A stretch of DNA of 64,000 nucleotides from the NCBI GenBank assembly GCA_003693705.1, contig RBZT01000667.1:39405-103404 (forward strand), written 5' to 3'. The position numbers and the translations under genes were made by a program. Positions 3,419 through 56,417 of this stretch are shown one piece after another (positions within the stretch are counted from its first letter, which is position 1; each line of letters starts with the position of its first letter). The stretch is from Polymyxa betae A26-41. Lineage: Eukaryota; Protista; Endomyxa: Phytomyxea. Below the pieces are notes generated by a model. The model was not told the DNA's origin and made no database searches. It was given only the letters and a program-made list of their open reading frames with translations.

Positions 3419-3574
3419 CTTTTCAAATGCATTTTGTGGAANNNNNNNNNNNNNNNNNNNNNNNNNNNNNNNNNNNNNNNNNNNNNNNNNNNNNNNNNNN
3501 NNNNNNNNNNNNNNNNNNNNNNNNNNNNNNNNNNNNNNNNNNNNNNNNNNNTTCCACAAAATGCATTTGAAAAG
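3419..3574. repeat. 23-bp perfect inverted repeat flanking a 110-N assembly gap
   Basis: cttttcaaatgcattttgtggaa (3419-3441) is the reverse complement of ttccacaaaatgcatttgaaaag (3552-3574); Ns span 3442-3551. Confidence 0.9.
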
Positions 3575-21100: not shown

Positions 21101-23504
21101 TAGTGTCTGGGTTCTGGTCGCAAATGCTGCATCCAGGTTAGCATTAGTTCAGTTCCCAACGCTTTTCCAGAATCGGTTTCTCTAGATCAGAATTGGTGGA
21201 TTCTGCTTCAGAGCACAATAACGGCAGCGGCTCTTGTCACTTTTGTAATTCGTTCGTTTATTTTCAACAATATGACTGTTCGCGCTGGTCGGCTTTTACA
21301 TGATACTCTGTTCGAGCGGATTGTGAGAGCACCTGTACCGATATTCTATGGTCAGCAGTCAAGAGCATTGGTGTGTTCTCTTTCCCCTAATGCGAACAGA
21401 TATCACTCCAATTGGGCGCGTTGTGAATCGGTTTAGCAAAGATATGGACCAAATTGATGTTTCAATTTCAGACTTTTTAGGTTCGTCGATTTAATCGCAA
21501 ATTTTGCCAACATCATCTGATTATGTACTTGACAGGGCAGCTGTTATTATATGGGTTGACTTTAGGTCTGATATGATATTCGTGCACTCTACGTACTCTA
21601 ACGCTGGGACTCAGTGATTTCGGTTCTACTTAGTTGCTACGCACTCCCATGGTTCATCCTTCCGCTTGTGCCAATAATGGCTTTCTTTTATTGGATCCAG
21701 CGATACTTCCGTTATAGCAGTAGGCAACTTAAGCGTATCGAAGGGACCTCACGCTCACCAATTTTCTCAAAATTTGAAGAAACGTTGACAGGTAACTATG
21801 TTAGAATGTTAGAACTTTCTGGGCGGCAGTGTCATTGCTGTATACAGGTTTGGCCACGATTCGTGCCCATCGGAAACAGCTCGAATTTACCCATGAGGCT
21901 GAGCACACTATTGAACGAAATAGCCAGGCTCTACTGGCCAATGTAAAGTTGGCGATCTATTTGTGATAGAATGACAAACACATTCTAGCAACTAGCTGGA
22001 AGATGGTTGGCACTGCGACTTGACCTGGTTTCGAACTTGGTCATTGCTGGAGTTGCAGTTGCGATCGCATCGATTAGCTGCTCTGTTGATTTAGCAATCG
22101 CCATTGTTGCTCTGGTTCAAGTGTGATCTTGCCGAAACCTTTCATTTTCAACGAACGTCATTGCCGACTTAGGTCACGCAACTAACAGGGATGCTGCAGT
22201 GGACTGTTCGTGTGTCGACTGAAGTTGAGAACAATGTTATTATGTATTTACAGTTAAAGTGGCTTCCTGATTTCTTCCAGATGACTGCAGTTGAGCGCGT
22301 TTTAGAATATACAGATGTGGCTCCAGAAGCCCCGTCAACGACACCAAACGACCCTGATGAATCTTGGCCGAACAAGGGAGAAATCGTACTTCGAAATCTT
22401 GTATGGCAATTCTTCACTGTCTAGCTACTGCCTTTAATTTACCCGAACAGCGAGCTCGATATCGACCAGAATTACCTTTGGTTTTGAAAGGAATTAACGC
22501 TCATATCAAGTCGATGGAAAAGGTTGGCATTTGTGGCCGAACTGGTATCATTTCTGAAATTGATCTGTGATATGCGATAATCTGTTTCTCAAGGATCCGG
22601 AAAATCGTCCTTGCTGTTGTGCTTACTAAGAATGATTGAACGAGACCCTTCCGGGGGACCAATCATTATCGACGATGTTCCTACCGATACTATTGGATTA
22701 CATTGTTTGCGATCGCGGATCAGTGTTATCCCTCAAGACGCTGTGCTATTTTCTGGTACGATTAGACAAAATCTTGATGTCTGTAAAGGTTGCTCTATTT
22801 TTTGTGTTCTTTACTGATATGTATAGCCGTTTAATGAGCGAACTGATGAAGAAATAACCGAATCGTTGCGACATGTATATTTCATTTCAGATCGAAGCAG
22901 TGTGTCATTAGATGATATGGTTGCTGAAAGAGGCTCAAATTTTAGCTTCGGGCAACGTCAGTTGATTGTCAGCCACGTTAACTTCTTGGTAGTCGATATA
23001 TTTTACTAATATGCATTGTAGTGCATCGCCAGGGCATTTTTACGACGCTCGAAGATTATTATCTGCGATGGTAATAATAGTGTAATTGCTGCAGCTTAAT
23101 TTACATTATTTTTTAGAGGCTACATCGGGAATTGATTCCAAGACGGATGAATTGATTCAAGCAGCAATACGATCACTGTTCAGTAAGTCAATCGTACTCA
23201 GACTGCAAAGAAATCAAAATGGATTCAAAGAGAGACAAACCGTAATCACAGTTGCTCATCGTCTTGAAACAATTGCGGATTCTGACCGAATTATGGTTAT
23301 TCGGGAAGGCATTGTTGAAGAATTTGATACACCACAGAATCTCATTGGTATTCGTAACTATTTGTGCAAACATAACGACTATAACCGCTTACAGACAATC
23401 CTAATGGATACTTCCGACAGATGGTGGAAAGTGTGGGAGAATCTGCAGTTGAGCGGTTCAAGGCCATCACCAAAAAGAATATATTTACTAATCATGCTGA
23501 TTAA
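18162..23504 (+). CDS. ABC transporter subfamily C (MRP-like), many short introns
   Basis: NBD1 [44 protein letters not shown]; TMD2 [29 protein letters not shown]; NBD2 [35 protein letters not shown]; ends NHAD-TAA at 23504. Confidence 0.93.
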
Positions 23505-23949
23505 AAATGTACAATCTCGTGCATTACTTGATAGCGATGCAGAACGGCTTTGAAAAAATTTCGTCTTTTCCGAATTTGTTCCAAGAATATTGCTCTAACA
23601 GGATTATAAGCAATCTGAAGCGTTACTCGCATCTTCTAGTAACGGGTATCAACATTCGAATATTCAGCCTTTAAGCGTTTTGAACCCGTTTGATTGCCAT
23701 GGAGATAATTTAGCAGGCAACGAAACTGATTCTACAGCCCAGTAGATTAAAACTCATTTATCAATAATTGCAAACTAAGTAAACACATTCTTAATCCTGT
23801 GAATGCGTATAATAGCCCAATGCTCATACCACAGACGCTTTTGATGTCTCTGTACGATGGCTAGTCGTCTAATGGAGGCTAACGTACAGTATATCGCGTG
23901 CAGAATTAAATAGCTGTACTTGTTAATAAATTAAAACTGTTCCATCAGT

Positions 23950-24006
23950 GGGCTGCGCCATACAAAGTTGACCCCCTGTCCTTACAAAGTTCATCCTGCG
24001 CAGCCC
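23950..24006. promoter_or_regulatory. Stem-loop with iteron-like direct repeats; candidate replication-origin region
   Basis: Arms gggctgcgc (23950-23958) and gcgcagccc (23998-24006); the loop has tacaaagtt twice (23961-23969, 23983-23991). No canonical NANTATTAC nonanucleotide. Confidence 0.5.
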
Positions 24007-24101
24007 CTCTTTGGTACACTGGCGGGTGTTCCGTATGCCGTGGCGGTGTGTTCCAGGTCGTGCCGGGACCTTCGTGGTACGAACGCGCCAAATTTCAAAC
24101 G

Positions 24102-25505
24102 ATGCGCTTTCTCGATGATGAGGCCGATGAGGTTGAAGTCGATCGTGAGGCCGTGGAGGCTGGTGATGAGGGCGATTTGACTACGACGAAGGCGCGGTCA
24201 ATGGTGTTTACTTTCCATGTGAATCAAGAAATTTGGCTGGATGGTGTTAACATGGGCCCGGCTCCGGTTGATGGCGTTCCTGATCCGGAGGTTTTGCTGC
24301 GGTCGTTGCCGGCGAAGTATCTCGTGTGGGGCCGCGAGGTCGCCCCCGAGACCGGCGCTTTTCATCTCCAGGGTTATGTCCAATGGCGGAGCCCGATGTC
24401 GTTTAAGTCCGTACATAATAAGTTAAAGCCCTACAAGGTTTGGCTGAAAAGGGCTTACGGCAATGCCGCGGCGAACCGCGAGTATTGCACGAAGTCCGGC
24501 GATTTCGTGGAGGTGGGCAAGCGTCCTCCCGACGGGTCCGTCGAAGGCGGTACCCGTTGGGAGGAGGCGGTTGAGCTTGCCCGCTGCGGTCGAATCGACG
24601 AGGTCGATGCTCAAACGCTCGTTACGTGTGTTCGTTCGCTCGAGCGAATCGAGGAGCGACACATGTTTCTGTCGCGGAAGTTGTCGATTCTTGCTGAATC
24701 GCGTAACGTTTGGGTCGTCGGCCCGACTCGGTGCGGCAAGTCGTCGATTCTGACGCGTTTATTTCGGTACGTCATTGACTCTGCATTGATATGGAGTCCA
24801 CAATGATAAGGAGTCCACAGGACTGAGGATGTGTATCGTAAGATACACAATAAAAACTGGTGTAACTACCGCCAGCAGCCGGTGGTGTTGTTGGACGATA
24901 TTGACGCCCACGGCTTTGGCAAGTGGGGTTTACATCATCTTAAACACTGGACGGATTTTTATCCGTTTCCGGCCGAACGCAAGTTCGGGAATGTGTTTAT
25001 TCGCCCGCTGCACTTTATTATCACTTCGAATGTTTCTCCAAAAGATGTGTTCGAAGATGTTCCCGCGGATCATCTTGCTGCGGTGTTGGCCCGCTTTAAG
25101 ATCATCAATCTCTACGATTGTCCGGGCAATCCGGCGTTTTGCGGGTGTGCGGTTCACCACCGGAACCTGTACCCTAAAGCAAGCTTGCGGCGGTTTGTCC
25201 TGGAAACTGTGGATTGGTTTCGTTGGGACTCAACCGACAACACCGTCAACTGTGATTATGCGGATGATGATCCATTCTTCCGGCAACCAGAACCCGTCGA
25301 TCTAATGGAGTTGGTCGGCAGCAGTGCAGGCTTGCGGTTTGTCGACCGCCGGCCGCGTGTTGATCCTGCTGTTGTCCCGGGTGATCCAGTGGAGGCTCCT
25401 GTGGCGGATCCTGAGGCGGAGACTCAGGAGTCTATGGATCCTGCTGGTGAAGCGGTTGTGGCGCTGTCGCAGTTAGGGGTTGTTGTAGCAGTGGCCGGTC
25501 AATAA
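24102..25505 (+). CDS. rep: Rolling-circle replication initiator Rep (HUH endonuclease + SF3 helicase); join(24102..24766,24821..25505), 449 aa
   Basis: Motif I VFTF, motif II FHLQGY (after GREVAPETG), motif III NREYCTK, Walker A GPTRCGKS, Walker B VLLDDI, B' ERKFG, motif C IITSN, Arg finger AVLARF. A 54-nt GT-AG intron removes TGA-TAA. Confidence 0.92.
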
Positions 25506-25615
25506 TACACGGTGCATCATCGGGTCGTTTTCCCGCGCCTTAAGCTGCAGTGTGTTAGCGTTTCATGTGCAGTTGCAGTGTAGTTCGCGGGTCGTACCGA
25601 TCGGATAACTCCTCC

Positions 25616-25722
25616 ACTGGATACCAAGTTTAAGGTTAGTTGATCTCCACTGGAGCTTTTTTAATAACACCTTTACTGGATACCAAGTTTAAGGTTAGTT
25701 GATCTCCACTGGAGCTTTTTTA
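25616..25722. repeat. 48-bp exact direct duplication of host sequence at the right junction of the Rep element
   Basis: actggataccaagtttaaggttagttgatctccactggagctttttta at 25616-25663 and 25675-25722, 11-bp spacer; includes the stop codon of the neighbouring Myb gene. Confidence 0.92.
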
Positions 25723-26549
25723 TACTTTTTACGGGCATTTAACTGGGGACAGCTCGATCCTTCTTTCTGGAAGAGGACTTTCATTTGATTCAAAGCCATC
25801 ATAACCATATCATTCGTGACAGCTGCTCTATGTATAGGTCCTTGGTTCAAAATCAAAGGATTTGCAGAACTGATTGATGAGACAAGTCTGATAAGTTCCC
25901 GAATGTAATTGAGCAGATAATGAAGGACTTGAACTGAGACGATCTCCAAGCTTTCATCATCAGGTAAATTGAATCGCTTCTGAGCGTTGGTCCAGTTAAT
26001 GATAGAATTGAGACTTCTGTCATACTCTAATCGTTCCTGTGGTACATCGAATGCCGTATCGGAAGAATTGCATTCTGAAATTGTCTCAGACGATTGAGTG
26101 GATGACGTTAAGCAATCGTCTTCATTGCTAGGATAACCAAACCTTAGAGGTTCTTTCTTGGGCTTAGCAGATTGGCAGTGAAGTGTCGAGATGTAATTCA
26201 TTATTTGAAGTACATTACGCTCTGGAAGAAGTTGACAGATTTTATCAGTATTGCCGGGACCAAATCGTTTGATGCCAAAAATGAGTCGGTTCTTCTCCTC
26301 AGCCGTCAGCTGTGGAATCCTAAAGCAGGATATGGGATTCTCGTCATTATCCAGGTCATCCGATAGATAATCGCAAGGCTCCAGAGCGAAACTGTCGCCG
26401 CTGGTTGACAGATCCGAAGCGAACCCTTCATCAGATTCTTGATCCCGACTAGAATCTGAGCATGGTGGCCGCCTTCGAGGTATGGCTTGCAGAGGCTCTT
26501 GCAAAGAAAGCCTCTTATCCAAGTTCGATGATCGCGACGAAGTTGCCAT
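25695..26549 (-). CDS. Myb/SANT-domain protein
   Basis: LTAEEKNRLIFGIKRFGPGNTDKICQLLPERNVLQIMNY fits a SANT/Myb repeat; single ORF. Confidence 0.7.
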   Translation of the reverse strand: MATSSRSSNLDKRLSLQEPLQAIPRRRPPCSDSSRDQESDEGFASDLSTSGDSFALEPCDYLSDDLDNDENPISCFRIPQLTAEEKNRLIFGIKRFGPGNTDKICQLLPERNVLQIMNYISTLHCQSAKPKKEPLRFGYPSNEDDCLTSSTQSSETISECNSSDTAFDVPQERLEYDRSLNSIINWTNAQKRFNLPDDESLEIVSVQVLHYLLNYIRELIRLVSSISSANPLILNQGPIHRAAVTNDMVMMALNQMKVLFQKEGSSCPQLNARKKYKKAPVEIN

Positions 26550-31155: not shown

Positions 31156-31761
31156 ATGACAATCATGTCCAAATTAGAGTTGCAAAGAGGGTTCGTTCCT
31201 GTCGCAAACGCGTCCATCTGCCCACATCCGCTGCTCTTGATTCTGGGTTCAGCCCCCGGTCCTCTCTGTAACACGTGTATTCATCGCAAATTCTACGTCA
31301 TTCTCATCATTTAGTTTGCAGCTATTGCTCGCCAACAGTATTACGGCAATCCATCGAATCATTTTTGGAAGATCTTGGCAAATTTGTTCGGCGTTTCCGA
31401 TCAGCTACCATATAAAGAGCGATGCGAGCGCTTAATAGAAAAGCGAATCGTACTTTGGGATATGTGTAAGCAATTTGTACGAAAAGGTAGCAGTGATAAT
31501 GCCATCAAGCACATTGAAATCAACAGGGTTGACGAACTTCTTCGACAATTCCCGTCAATTCAAGTCGTAGCTTGCAATGGTCGAACTTCGGCGAGTCTGC
31601 TAAAAAGGCACGTTTCTCTACCCAAAGATGTTCGTGTTATTACACTGCCTTCGTCCAGCCCAGCTCATGCCATGAAAAATGCAGTCGCTGCCAAGAGTCA
31701 GCTTTGGAGGAAACTATTCGAAATCGAGCTGCTTGACCAACTGGAAATGAATCCCGAATAG
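31156..31761 (+). CDS. Uracil-DNA glycosylase superfamily, family 6 (hypoxanthine-DNA glycosylase-like), 2 exons
   Basis: LLILGSAPG / ..QQYYGNPSNHFWKIL, IVLWD, RKGSSDNAI, ACNG, LPSSSPAHA. Confidence 0.8.
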
Positions 31762-33992: not shown

Positions 33993-35342
33993 CTATGTGA
34001 TGTTATAGATAGTGGCTGCTGATTCTCTAGCCAGCTGAATCAATGCAGCATCAGCTAAAACAAGGGCTGTCATAGCTTCTACTATAGGGATTGCTCTAGG
34101 TACAATGCAGGGATCATGTCGTCCAGCTGCTTGAAGAACAACCTTCTCGCCATTCCAGGTGCTGGTCTCTTGCGCCTTTCCAATTGTAGCGGCAGGTTTA
34201 AATGCCACCCGGAATGTGATAATGTCCCTGTTGCTGATGCCACCCAGAACACCACCGCTTCTGTTCGTCGCCGTCCTCAACGCATTGTTCTCATCAACAA
34301 CAAAGGCATCGTTATGTTGGGAGCCTCGCTGCTTAGCCCCAGTGAATCCCGATCCGATTTCGAATCCCTAAACCATGTAAAAAAGGTGGAAATAATACAG
34401 GATTCCCCACACTTTAGTGGCTGGAATTGATAGCATGGCTTGAGCAAGCTTGGCTTCCTGACACAAATAAGTACTGAAACAACAGCTTCTAACAACATAT
34501 ATTACGAGGCGGTCAAATACAGGTTCACCCCATCCAACTGGAACGTTCTCGACCGTGCAGGTTACAACGCCTCCAACAGAATCTTGCTCAGCTGACACCT
34601 CTTCGATCAATCGGACCATTTCGTTGGCAATTTCCAAATCTGGGCATCGGACGAGAGTCGAATCGACTTGGCTTCGAGTCCACAGCACGGATCGACGCTT
34701 AAACGATTTTTAGAATGATGTTTAAACCGGATTGATGGTGAACCATTTACGTCCTCGGGCATTGAAATTTCTCCAACAGAAGATACGAAAGCAACAATGT
34801 TTACACCAAATCGTTCCTTTAACCATTTTTCCTAAGATCTATCAGCCTTCCCATATAGTATACAGAATCGCTTTACGAACGGCGATAGCTCCAGCAGCGA
34901 CTCGACCAATAGTCTCTCTTGCACTAGAACGACCACCACCGCTGCTTGCACGAACGCCATACTTATTCTATTTACAATTGAACTGTCGTTCTTTGAGGTT
35001 GTTGCTTGTTACCTGATAAGTGAAATCAGCATGCGAAGGTCGGGGGATATCTTTCATGGCTGAATAATCACCCGGTCGATGATCCAAATTACGAACCATC
35101 AAAGCGATAGGTGTGCCAAGCGTGACACCATTTTCCACGCCTGATATTATTGAGACCTGATCAGGTTCATCTCTTGATGTAGTCAGATGCGACTGCCCAG
35201 GGCGGCGACGTCGAAGTTGGGTTTGAATATCGTCTGGCGTCAGATGCATACGAGGCGGGACACCATCGATGACACATCCCACTCCAGGACAATGGCTTTC
35301 ACCGAATGTCGAGACACGCCAGGCATGACCAAATGTGCTCAT
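33993..35342 (-). CDS. aroC: Chorismate synthase, multi-exon
   Basis: [81 protein letters not shown]. Confidence 0.96.
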
Positions 35343-35437
35343 TGACTCGGGATGTCGCACATTCGTAGTACCATCGTATTCGTTGAACCTAAACCCTACA
35401 AATCCTTTTCCCTAAAACAACAACGATAGAATCTTCA

Positions 35438-39974: not shown

Positions 39975-40111
39975 ATTGGTAAGGCCATAACCTGCTCCTA
40001 CAAACAAGGTCACTTCTTGAAGTAACAACGCAAGGTAACACCATTGGTAAGGCCATAACCTGCTCTTTACAAACAAGGTCACTTCTTGAAGTAACAACGC
40101 AAGGTAACACC
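39975..40111. repeat. 68/69-bp tandem duplication in the intergenic region between divergent genes
   Basis: attggtaaggccataacctgct..acaaacaaggtcacttcttgaagtaacaacgcaaggtaacacc at 39975-40042 and 40043-40111. Confidence 0.92.
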
Positions 40112-53143: not shown

Positions 53144-54337
53144 CTAAATTATTTGCTGAGGTAGATTTGATGGTTCTTCTCTGCAGAAATCTTTGTGAAG
53201 AATATTTCGTACTCTTTCAGAATGCTGCATCGCTGTATACGCCTCAGGGATCCAAGCCTCGATCTTATTTTGAATCGCTGATCGCACCGTTTCCAGTACA
53301 GCATTGGCTTCATCGACATTGATTGCATATGCATATGGTGGTCCGATCTTCATCATAAAATCATGCTGACTTCGAATCGGATGGGCCGGCAGATCAGTTA
53401 GCGAGCGTGGCTGGGCGTACTTCGCAAAGATATAGGGACTGCCAGCTGCAATTGCTTCGAATGCTGTCGGCGCTAGGACGGGATCGCCGAATCCAATCAC
53501 CGCCGATGATCTGACAAGAATCCGTTGCCATTCGGTTGAATTACAAATTCCGACGTTAACGACGCTTGTTGGGAACTGCAGCCCATCGAGCTGTGCAGAA
53601 GGAACCGTCGCCACGACTTTATACGATTCGGTCAGAGCAGCGATAACGCTTAGATGATTTCGAAAATATCGCCCGAGTTTCCCATGCAGCAGAATGATCG
53701 GACGGTCTGAGTCATCATCGTTAGTCGAAGTGATCAGATCCTGACGGAAACCAAGAAACTCATTCCAAGGATTTGGATAGGAGACCAGGAATTGCTCTAG
53801 TCGCAGATGGATGTGGTTCTGTTCAGGCGGTGTGCCCCAGAAATCGATAAACCTGAGCTTACAGGCTATTGCCGGATTGGTTGCATCGGGTATAACAGAA
53901 ATCAGAGATGCCAAACGATACTGATCGGACACAATCAAGTCGGCAGCTCGAAGCGATGCCTCGCTAGAATCGTCAACGGCCGTCATCACTTGCATTTGAA
54001 CGTCGGAACAAGACCGGGCGGCGTTAATGAAAGATCTAAACAGGCGAATTTCGCCACCAGCGCCTCCTTGATTCATGCGATTAACTTCAGCCTCGAAACC
54101 ATCCATGAAAAACACCACGTTGGTGGGTTTTATGATGGGATCACTCCTAGTTGCCAATGTTGAACCTGCACGCATGACATGGCGGAAGTCTCGAACTTCG
54201 AACTCGTCGTTAAGCCAACGAAATAAGACGGAGCCCGAGACGAAGCTGAAGAACGCAGCCAAGCCGAACAAGACACGAAATCGGATATCAGCTTGCTGAC
54301 AAGGACCACGATAGGAACCTGTGCCTGTGCTCTTCAT
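53144..54337 (-). CDS. Glycosyltransferase family 18 (GnT-V/MGAT5-like)
   Basis: Type II TM anchor; GGEI, ADLIVSDQY, CKLRFIDFWGTPPE, VIGFGDP..PTAFEAIAAG, RSQHDF..IGPPYAY match the MGAT5 catalytic region. Confidence 0.75.
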   Translation of the reverse strand: MKSTGTGSYRGPCQQADIRFRVLFGLAAFFSFVSGSVLFRWLNDEFEVRDFRHVMRAGSTLATRSDPIIKPTNVVFFMDGFEAEVNRMNQGGAGGEIRLFRSFINAARSCSDVQMQVMTAVDDSSEASLRAADLIVSDQYRLASLISVIPDATNPAIACKLRFIDFWGTPPEQNHIHLRLEQFLVSYPNPWNEFLGFRQDLITSTNDDDSDRPIILLHGKLGRYFRNHLSVIAALTESYKVVATVPSAQLDGLQFPTSVVNVGICNSTEWQRILVRSSAVIGFGDPVLAPTAFEAIAAGSPYIFAKYAQPRSLTDLPAHPIRSQHDFMMKIGPPYAYAINVDEANAVLETVRSAIQNKIEAWIPEAYTAMQHSERVRNILHKDFCREEPSNLPQQII

Positions 54338-56417
54338 AGAGCCCGTCAACAAATGCCCAATCAGTCGTTGTAGGATATTGGCCCTTCACCTAAATCATAG
54401 TAATACGGATGGTGTTCTTATCCAAGTGAAAGTTTGATAGTATTTTCGTTGCAATTCATTTCGATTTTTCTTCGCTTCAGCAAGATTGTCGAACGATATA
54501 TCGAACTATAATGTCGGTTTTTTGATATTCAACAGATAATGGATTCATTTTAAACTGACTTTGAATCCCGAGTTTGCTTTGTTGTTCAGCAGGATTCAGT
54601 CTCAACAATAGAGATATCACCATCAGAGTAATTTCCGACAAAGAAACTGCTGGAACGACCGATCTATGACAGATTGCGAAGTTTGAAACTAGAAGAACCA
54701 GCTCGAAATTCTCTAAAATATCTTGACGGTCTAATCACTAATGTAATGTAATCTGGCGCAGCCAACGGTATTAATATTCTTGATAAATAATTGTTTCCTT
54801 CGATCGAATTGTAAACGTCTGTACTGCAAGGGGATAGCGGACGACGAGAACGTAGTCACATGATGAGAACGTATAACCACATGATATTAAAACGCCAGGC
54901 CCTCAGTCCAAGCATTTGTACATTATGAAAGACGTTCTCAATCGAGGCGAACAAATATCACACATCCTGAATGTGGAGGTATCTGGTGAGCCGAGTAACA
55001 CGATTGGAGGCGAGATTCGCAGGTTTTTTCATTCATCGATCAATGCCATACCTCACACGTTCATCGTCGATGGTCATCCAGCAGTCACAATCACTTGGTC
55101 GATGCCTGGTGTGAATACGTCGCAATACTACTACACCGATAGCATCTAAAGTGACTGAATCTCTGTAGCACACGCCAAATTAATGCTAAAAGGACTAGTT
55201 AATCACGTCAAGGCTCATCCGAATTTCGAGCGACTTCGAAACCAGCAAGAATATGACAATCAATGGGGTGTCACTTACCTAGTCACGATGCCTCTTCCAT
55301 ACGGTTTCGACCCTAATTCCGCTGGAGCTCTTTGGTGAAACTGACGATCTCAAGTTTCCAAATGTATCTATATATCTGTTTTTGTTGAAACACAAACTCA
55401 AATAAATTTCAAGCATACACTAAACCACTTCTCTCTTCCAATCCCAACTCGACCATCACTAGTAATAGTCATTAGCTGGACATATACTTGGTCATCATAT
55501 TCGTCTGCTATATAAGAAAAGATCGTCATCTTATTTCAGGAGCTACATAAATAACATAATCCACTCGTTGCTGTCATTCGTCATAAAGTTGAGAAAAGTT
55601 TTCGCGACATTAGGGGAGCATTCGTTCCGGTTCATCGATTCTATATACACTGCGTTGTCGCTGCTGGTATCTCTATGTGGATGTTTATCTACAACAAATA
55701 TAACGAGCACCGAGACGTTCGCCAAGACTTGCGATGAGAAACTCCATAGCGTTCGTCAAAGAATTTGCTAGTGGGGAGATACCCACGAGTCATCTTAGAG
55801 ATTGTAACGATCTTTAATCGCAACAGCTTAATTATTGCCGGAATATAATAATGATGAAAGGATACGTAGAATCAAAGAAGGAAGACATGAAGATTGGGCC
55901 TTGAATACATGAACGTGGTCAACATTCAACGTCATCAATGCCTTTTATCCCATTGATGGCATTGATTGCATCCGCACCTATAAAATCAACAACCATAAAA
56001 TCTACCGATTGGTCTATCATACACAAATGAACTCCTTTCATCCAATGTCCTCTCCTTCCGATATTGCTGAATCACCAAAGCAATCAGTACTGGAAAAATG
56101 ATGAAATTTTCAGTCACATCGTCACGTTTGATAATTTCCGAATTGAAATCCAAAACTGAGAGAGTGAGTTACGAGATTGATTTGGCAGGAGGGTCAATTT
56201 TGAAATGGCAATTACAAAATCGACATCCAAGTGAGATTATGCCATGTTTTTTTGTATGGGTGGCCTCGTTCCCAGAAAGAAATATCCAGCAACAGGAAAC
56301 CGTTATCTCAAATTGTCAAATGTATCCGATGATTAAGACAGAATGGTTACAGAGATCTGAAACTGTGTATTAAAATATAGTAGGTAGGAGGGGTCGTGTT
56401 AATGACAGCAATGACAT

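Follow-up and report, generated by a model that had tools for sequence, protein, structure and literature searches.

The window considered here, a stretch of 64,000 nucleotides analysed at its full length, carries amid cellular genes a gene for a replication-associated protein (Rep) of the type found in viruses whose circular single-stranded DNA encodes a Rep (CRESS viruses), raising the question of how such a gene came to reside in a eukaryotic chromosome. The original prediction allowed for a recent integration that would identify the organism as host of an unclassified CRESS lineage, for a domesticated Rep, and for a transposon-like one. The first of these best accounts for the data: the gene belongs to an insert that is probably a fragment of a circular ssDNA virus or of a satellite encoding Rep only, taken up recently when a break in the DNA of what is likely a plasmodiophorid was repaired.

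The spliced Rep gene and its relatives

The Rep frame (24102–25505, plus strand) is open except for two adjacent stop codons (TGA TAA), both of which lie inside a 54-nt GT..AG intron (24767–24820, +) whose removal leaves 449 codons. Exon 1 (24102–24766, +) encodes an acidic N-terminus, HUH motifs I–III (HLQ type, with a single catalytic tyrosine), linker helices and the Walker A motif, and exon 2 (24821–25505, +) contributes Walker B, motif C and the arginine finger, as well as some 58 residues of a Cys-rich extension peculiar to the clade and a low-complexity tail. This combination of HUH motifs with a fused SF3 helicase is that of Cressdnaviricota-type Reps, and all seven motifs occupy conserved columns in an alignment of 121 Reps; the coordinates, 449-residue spliced product and complete motif set first proposed are thus borne out by the frame, the intron and the conserved columns. 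Excision of the intron is recorded by one X3 contig (depth 3.87, 41 letters on its shorter side), X3 being the one of three spliced-type runs (X3, X4 and X8) to cover it. All three runs cover parts of Rep and show GT..AG joints in host genes, and their RNA nature, which is not on record, was deduced from these spliced host genes. Retention of the intron is predicted to yield a truncated product of 234 residues. The core columns of the intron (225–235) are filled in one of the 121 aligned Reps, the query alone, and the intron is absent from all four of the closest relatives that span the site. An internal 17-nt tandem duplication occupies 33 of its 54 bases (24787–24819), possibly a trace of how the intron originated.

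Exon 1 matches the Pfam family Viral_Rep (E 2e-8), exon 2 alone weakly matches RNA_helicase (E 0.069), and the best relative of solved structure is PCV2 Rep (E 1.3e-11). A structure predicted for the read-through protein (pLDDT 82.9) had CRESS Reps as its top named fold matches in both fold libraries, and comparison with the PCV2 ATPase domain gave Z 9.4 and an rmsd of 1.8 over 90 residues. The activities predicted for the protein, by analogy with PCV2 Rep, are the nicking of ssDNA and that of a hexameric helicase. The Cys-rich C-terminal extension gave no clear fold match, since the PCV2 alignments include the helicase core only, and models disagree on this segment.

A search with exon 1 against 1.84 billion representative sequences returned 3372 matches at E 0.001, of which the 150 best were listed, and six relatives at 39–64% identity were prominent among these listed matches. 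Three long environmental Reps (P0004, P0005 and P0100) share the Cys-rich extension with the query, and a profile of the extension built from these four sequences matched, among 153 proteins and the open reading frames of 154 loci, only the same four and locus L075. The four Reps form a clade with an SH-aLRT support of 100 and a branch length of 0.85 in a tree of 39 rows from which two long-branch rows had been removed, and with a support of 74 when the two long branches were kept (73 rows); the trees used 38 and 47 of 152 proteins, and both were quick searches without bootstrap. The unclassified CRESS lineage foreseen originally thus emerges as a separate Rep clade. The contigs carrying P0004, P0005 and P0100 measure 5386, 5309 and 2659 nt, and contig sizes of clade members cluster near 1.2, 2.7 and 5.3 kb. 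Several of P0012, P0029, P0073, P0005 and P0100 were called as fragments starting or stopping near conserved motifs, a possible sign of introns at other positions.

The Rep of L075 is nearly identical to P0005, and this locus looks like a free virus. Its Rep is followed by a small ORF, probably spliced, and then by an Arg-rich ORF cut by the contig end, which had no Pfam or Atlas match and which, in this cut form, scored no better than shuffles against a tombus-type capsid. The segment in question (L075:810–1672) contains AT-rich intron-like stretches, the small ORF and the Arg-rich ORF, which ends in G-x-G-x-Y; this motif also stands ahead of the S domain in three tombus-type capsids (L052, L055 and L086), the L075 match not being significant. 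IMG/VR scans with P0001, P0004, P0100, P0005 and the clade motif returned no clade member, and neither did an alignment scan of IMG/VR, which gave 74 loci at 27–35% identity. A metagenome scan gave one clade member among 80 loci kept. Three named viruses were retrieved at 31–32% identity to Rep over the best segment, and word-indexed protein searches, an insensitive method, gave two and four matches. In these scans no full virus of the clade was seen.

The insert and its chromosomal site

The Rep gene is the central part of a 1783-bp insert (23939–25721) that takes the place of 13 host bases, with no target-site duplication. Its limits are set by an empty allele, as had been suggested should be sought: one 572-nt contig of X12 (depth 4.79) joins 23938 to 25722 via 13 other letters. 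X12 is a spliced-type run that differs from the window by about 1% in host exons, and may represent a sister lineage rather than the same species. The empty site was observed in one of eight runs and four carry the insert; in X13, X14 and X17 the Rep itself is uncovered at their low depth, which has no bearing on absence.

Attachment of the insert to the host chromosome is clearest in the DNA run X1, where one 8087-nt unitig extends from the ABCC gene through Rep and matches 22500–25645 without a difference at a depth of 190. The right flank has a depth of 179, and a 48-nt unitig from the terminal repeat has a depth of 380, twice that of the flanks, as expected for a single copy in the chromosome whose repeat has two units, free circles not being in surplus. 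At a 90% likeness threshold only four contigs of X1 match the insert, all at least 99% alike, consistent with a single copy, copy number here being based on read-run depth. As to a circular episome, X1 showed neither excess depth nor a branch at the left junction, contigs being a form in which rare variants are dropped. X1 may itself be the source of the window, as may a run of the study that produced X3. The left junction is also crossed by an X8 contig from another study (23830–24002, 109 host and 64 insert bases). At the right junction contigs carry 29 insert bases only, below the 31-base threshold, and support comes from graph depth and, in X3, X4 and X8, from GT..AG joints that link the repeats with the host flank (sides of 26–30). 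Of the two junctions to which the original prediction drew attention, the left is thus seen directly and the right is supported by depth and splicing, and the insert is contiguous with host genes at host depth, as befits an endogenous element. No differing letters were listed among X1, X3, X4 and X8.

The neighbours named in the original prediction, an ABCC transporter gene and a Myb gene, hold, with the qualification that the insertion lies inside the 3' end of the Myb-like gene and comprises more than the ORF. The disrupted gene, Myb/SANT (RRN5-like; 25695–26549, minus strand), is hit in its last codons: where the empty allele, as read manually in X12, ends in six codons of its own, eight codons derived from the insert stand instead, and the insert also provides the stop. 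Its identification as Myb is weak (E 0.013, below the cut-off); look-alikes of RRN5/SANT type were found by language-model features (0.89–0.91), a lead only. A 55-nt host intron on the far side of the insert (23775–23829, −), recognised by its CT..AC joint in X3, X4, X8 and X12, likely belongs to the 3' UTR of this gene and is now split off from it by the insert, since it lies on the same X12 contig as the Myb-like gene. The insert alters the C-terminus and 3' UTR of a host gene, and is usable as a presence/absence marker between lineages.

Several remnants flank the Rep gene within the insert. Eleven bases from the left end, a hairpin (23950–24006) consists of a 9-bp G+C-rich stem and a 39-nt loop with two imperfect 17-nt direct repeats; its folding z-scores are about −3.0 and −3.2, one of 200 shuffles being as stable on each strand, and it is a candidate origin or Rep-binding region. 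A motif scan of the insert found no canonical nonanucleotide, and one loose NANTANTAN match overlaps a stop codon. Beyond Rep lies an antisense intron (25545–25597, −; 53 nt, GT..AG, CTAAC branch site), which like the Rep intron is spliced in X3 and is probably what is left of the 3' part of a convergent viral gene that the insert otherwise lacks. The right end is made of two tandem 59-nt repeats (25605–25721) that are 95% alike; splice donors lie in them, and the host gene takes its new stop codon from them. Plus-strand GT..AG joints with donors in these repeats (25632–25836 and 25691–25751/25836, in X3, X4 and X8) end antisense to the Myb-like gene, and Rep transcripts may read through into that gene or toward the helicase gene. 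No capsid gene is present in the insert, which has no further ORF and no space for one, and a 23-codon antisense remnant for which a capsid assignment was tried matches nothing. An Rfam scan of the region gave one chance-level match.

The two introns of the insert (54 and 53 nt) fall within the host range of 46–56 nt (13 host introns defined by read joints). The GC content of the insert, 53.9%, exceeds the mean of 43.9% for 285 other stretches of equal length (SD 2.4, maximum 51.4%); the description of the gene as GC-rich is thus correct, with a contrast that is real but modest. A 15-nt, 80% inverted match near the insert ends was rejected as a terminal inverted repeat, since it straddles the left junction, and no terminal direct repeats connecting the two ends were found among the repeats listed or at the junctions. 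A 17-nt repeat match in L155 without further similarity was judged to be chance, and a bacterial promoter scan is irrelevant for a eukaryotic host.

The decayed transposon fragments said to lie elsewhere in the window were not recovered, as none of 67 ORFs of at least 95 residues matches a transposon family. The window further contains a uracil-DNA glycosylase-superfamily match (31315–31758, +), a chorismate synthase gene (33996–35411, −), one long ORF (53147–54385, −) that matches glycosyltransferase family 18 and a two-copy 69-nt tandem repeat (39975–40111, 97% alike) of no relation to the insert. Its sole assembly gap (3442–3551, 110 N) lies 20 kb away from the insert, where the sequence is AT-rich.

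Origin of the insert

The insert is judged to be young, since its site is empty in a lineage only about 1% different, the carriers show no differences among themselves, and its GC content has not yet reached the host level. Together with the junction-spanning contigs and the single-copy depth, this supports the recent integration proposed originally. Youth also explains the intactness of Rep better than selection does. The preferred account is that a nucleus-replicating CRESS virus or satellite would have supplied a linear fragment comprising the hairpin, rep, the tail of a convergent gene and the repeats, which would then have been patched into a chromosomal break by end-joining. Such a capture is suggested by the loss of target bases with no duplication, the single copy and the truncated convergent gene. 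Both introns would have arrived with the virus, since an insert of such youth leaves no time for introns to be gained and their size agrees with that of host introns. Having no capsid gene, the insert alone would need a helper for packaging.

Rep pieces related to, and different from, that of the insert occur in X8, X12, X14 and X17. X8 and X17 share a contig end in which a match to motif III continues into different, Rep-like letters. A 2162-nt record of X17 matches 25485–25599, apart from six differences and three bases inserted within the antisense intron; it runs about 1.4 kb past the point where the insert ends. In X12 the 59-nt repeat is found at depth 32 directly after letters resembling the C-terminus of another Rep, and in X14 there are a match to motif I and variants of the repeat, the latter at depths of 14–19 against about 2. 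X1 at 90% likeness showed none of these pieces, the other threshold being 80, so that the X8 and X12 pieces alone are comparable, and a gap in coverage is no proof of absence. The related contigs are visible only as short matches and 30-letter loose ends, for which depth is a poor measure, and they may be either free viruses or other isolate-specific inserts. A joint in X8 from 24490 to 25552 (GA..GT) is taken to be neither a splice nor a deletion: it reflects two separate matches of one related Rep contig, which has a loose end in common with X17.

These pieces bear on an alternative in which the insert is a self-mobilising rolling-circle element, a CRESS-derived transposon or a provirus cycling between chromosome and circle, whose Rep nicks the left hairpin, copies the unit as far as the right repeats and reinserts it. 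Rep is transcribed with its catalytic motifs intact, the hairpin and repeats lie close to or at the very ends, the same repeat directly follows a different Rep-like C-terminus in X12, variants of it stand at raised depth in X14, and Rep-driven spread of such elements has been raised in the available part of an earlier survey (PMC3198968). Nevertheless, X1 contains one copy, with the repeat at just twice flank depth and neither excess depth nor a branch at the left junction, and 13 host bases were lost at the site. The insert also stops a short way past the orphan antisense intron, which is how a genome that had snapped would end, and the related X17 contig continues for about 1.4 kb beyond that point. 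This explanation is distinctly unlikely, and the transposon-like Rep of the original prediction gained no positive support.

Domestication, in which the host would have kept Rep for a cellular or antiviral function, is a quite improbable reading. It draws on the open frame, on a spliced intron of host size and on transcripts found in three studies' runs, and conserved, expressed Reps have been read as co-opted (PMC3198968, in its accessible part). Against it, the empty site shows that the insert is not fixed, the viral-type GC content and flanking viral remnants have been retained, and the absence of differences among carriers leaves no measurable signal of selection (dN/dS). An assembly chimera of a contaminating virus and host DNA, for which one could cite the GC contrast, the tandem repeat at the right junction, the existence of an empty-site contig and the mixed plant and soil material from which obligate parasites are sequenced, is scarcely credible, because X1 joins the insert to host genes within one unitig at single-copy depth, an X8 contig of another study crosses the same left junction, and in X3, X4 and X8 spliced joints connect host sequence with the repeats.

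Recent capture of a viral or satellite fragment is thus the explanation adopted here. A broader and rather unlikely proposition is that plasmodiophorid crop parasites harbour active, intron-bearing ssDNA viruses and Rep satellites that repeatedly enter chromosomes, in which case the contigs of X8, X12, X14 and X17 would represent live infections. These contigs make virus circulation directly testable.

Host assignment and known Rep-encoding systems

Nop56 encoded in the window is 73% identical to that of Plasmodiophora brassicae and at most 63% identical to the other 119 of 120 among the matches listed, two fused plant Nop56 records reaching higher bit scores at 55% identity. Judging from this one protein, the host is likely a plasmodiophorid other than P. 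brassicae, possibly a Spongospora or a Polymyxa. The literature search found no paper describing this element, and the locus could be listed in subscription papers, in supplements, or in a genome-wide survey of endogenous CRESS sequences that reportedly appeared in J Evol Biol in 2021. The same search found, for plasmodiophorids, one short rep fragment and one cap fragment only. Both come from Polymyxa betae, the rep fragment being Draupnirviridae-like and 168 nt long, in a source that tabulates draupnirvirus-related matches alone (PMC10193959), and the claim that the locus identifies a host is tempered accordingly: a recent insert in a likely plasmodiophorid sustains it, but a short rep fragment had already been listed. 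According to the same source, as far as it was available, CRESS lineages are mostly without a known host, hosts being known for 14 of 57 before that study. Endogenous CRESS elements serve as evidence of host in another partly accessible study (PMC9615429), whose supplement has no plasmodiophorid entries, and the protist hosts listed elsewhere include none that is rhizarian in the parts covered (PMC13499601, PMC12451638).

Rep elements have been described in many eukaryotes, some of them expressed or located inside host genes (PMC3198968, in part), and the insert is one more endogenous CRESS element, of a known kind, with uncommonly good documentation; it gives an unclassified Rep clade a host and hints at related elements that still circulate. 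As with endogenous cressdnavirus Reps of protists (PMC3198968; PMC9615429; PMC10193959, each in its available part), a chromosomal Rep serves as host evidence, and some of those Reps likewise are expressed or interrupt genes. The present Rep differs from them in its full length, its splicing, the non-coding viral remnants on its flanks and its mapped empty site, and so links plasmodiophorids, among which are major parasites of crops and vectors of viruses, with a Rep clade that has no name.

With circovirus-type Reps (HLQ, single Tyr), including PCV2 Rep (7lar, 8xms), Vientovirus Rep (9pqq), Cybaeus spider associated circular virus 1 and Lake Sarah-associated circular molecule 6, the protein has in common its domain order, seven motifs and fold. 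It departs from them in a long insert after motif I, the acidic N-terminus, the Cys-rich extension, the intron after Walker A and a length of 449 residues against about 300. Cruciviruses, whose hosts are unproven, with SAR protists suggested (PMC7468197, PMC11832652, available parts), include spliced Reps in 36 genomes, and their sizes of 2.7–5.7 kb match the contigs of the clade; they are, however, defined by a tombusvirus-like capsid (PMC7468197, available part), and no capsid could be assigned to the clade of the insert. Should the clade prove to have such a capsid, the organism would be the first demonstrated crucivirus host. Replitrons and Helitrons resemble the insert as HUH endonuclease genes that are insertion-polymorphic in eukaryotic genomes, but, in the available part of their description (PMC10288648), Replitrons have no helicase, carry short terminal direct repeats and are multicopy, and Helitrons have two tyrosines and a fused SF1-type helicase and insert cleanly between AT or TT, whereas the present Rep combines a single tyrosine with an SF3 helicase in one copy in X1, at a site that lost 13 bases, and so belongs to neither group.
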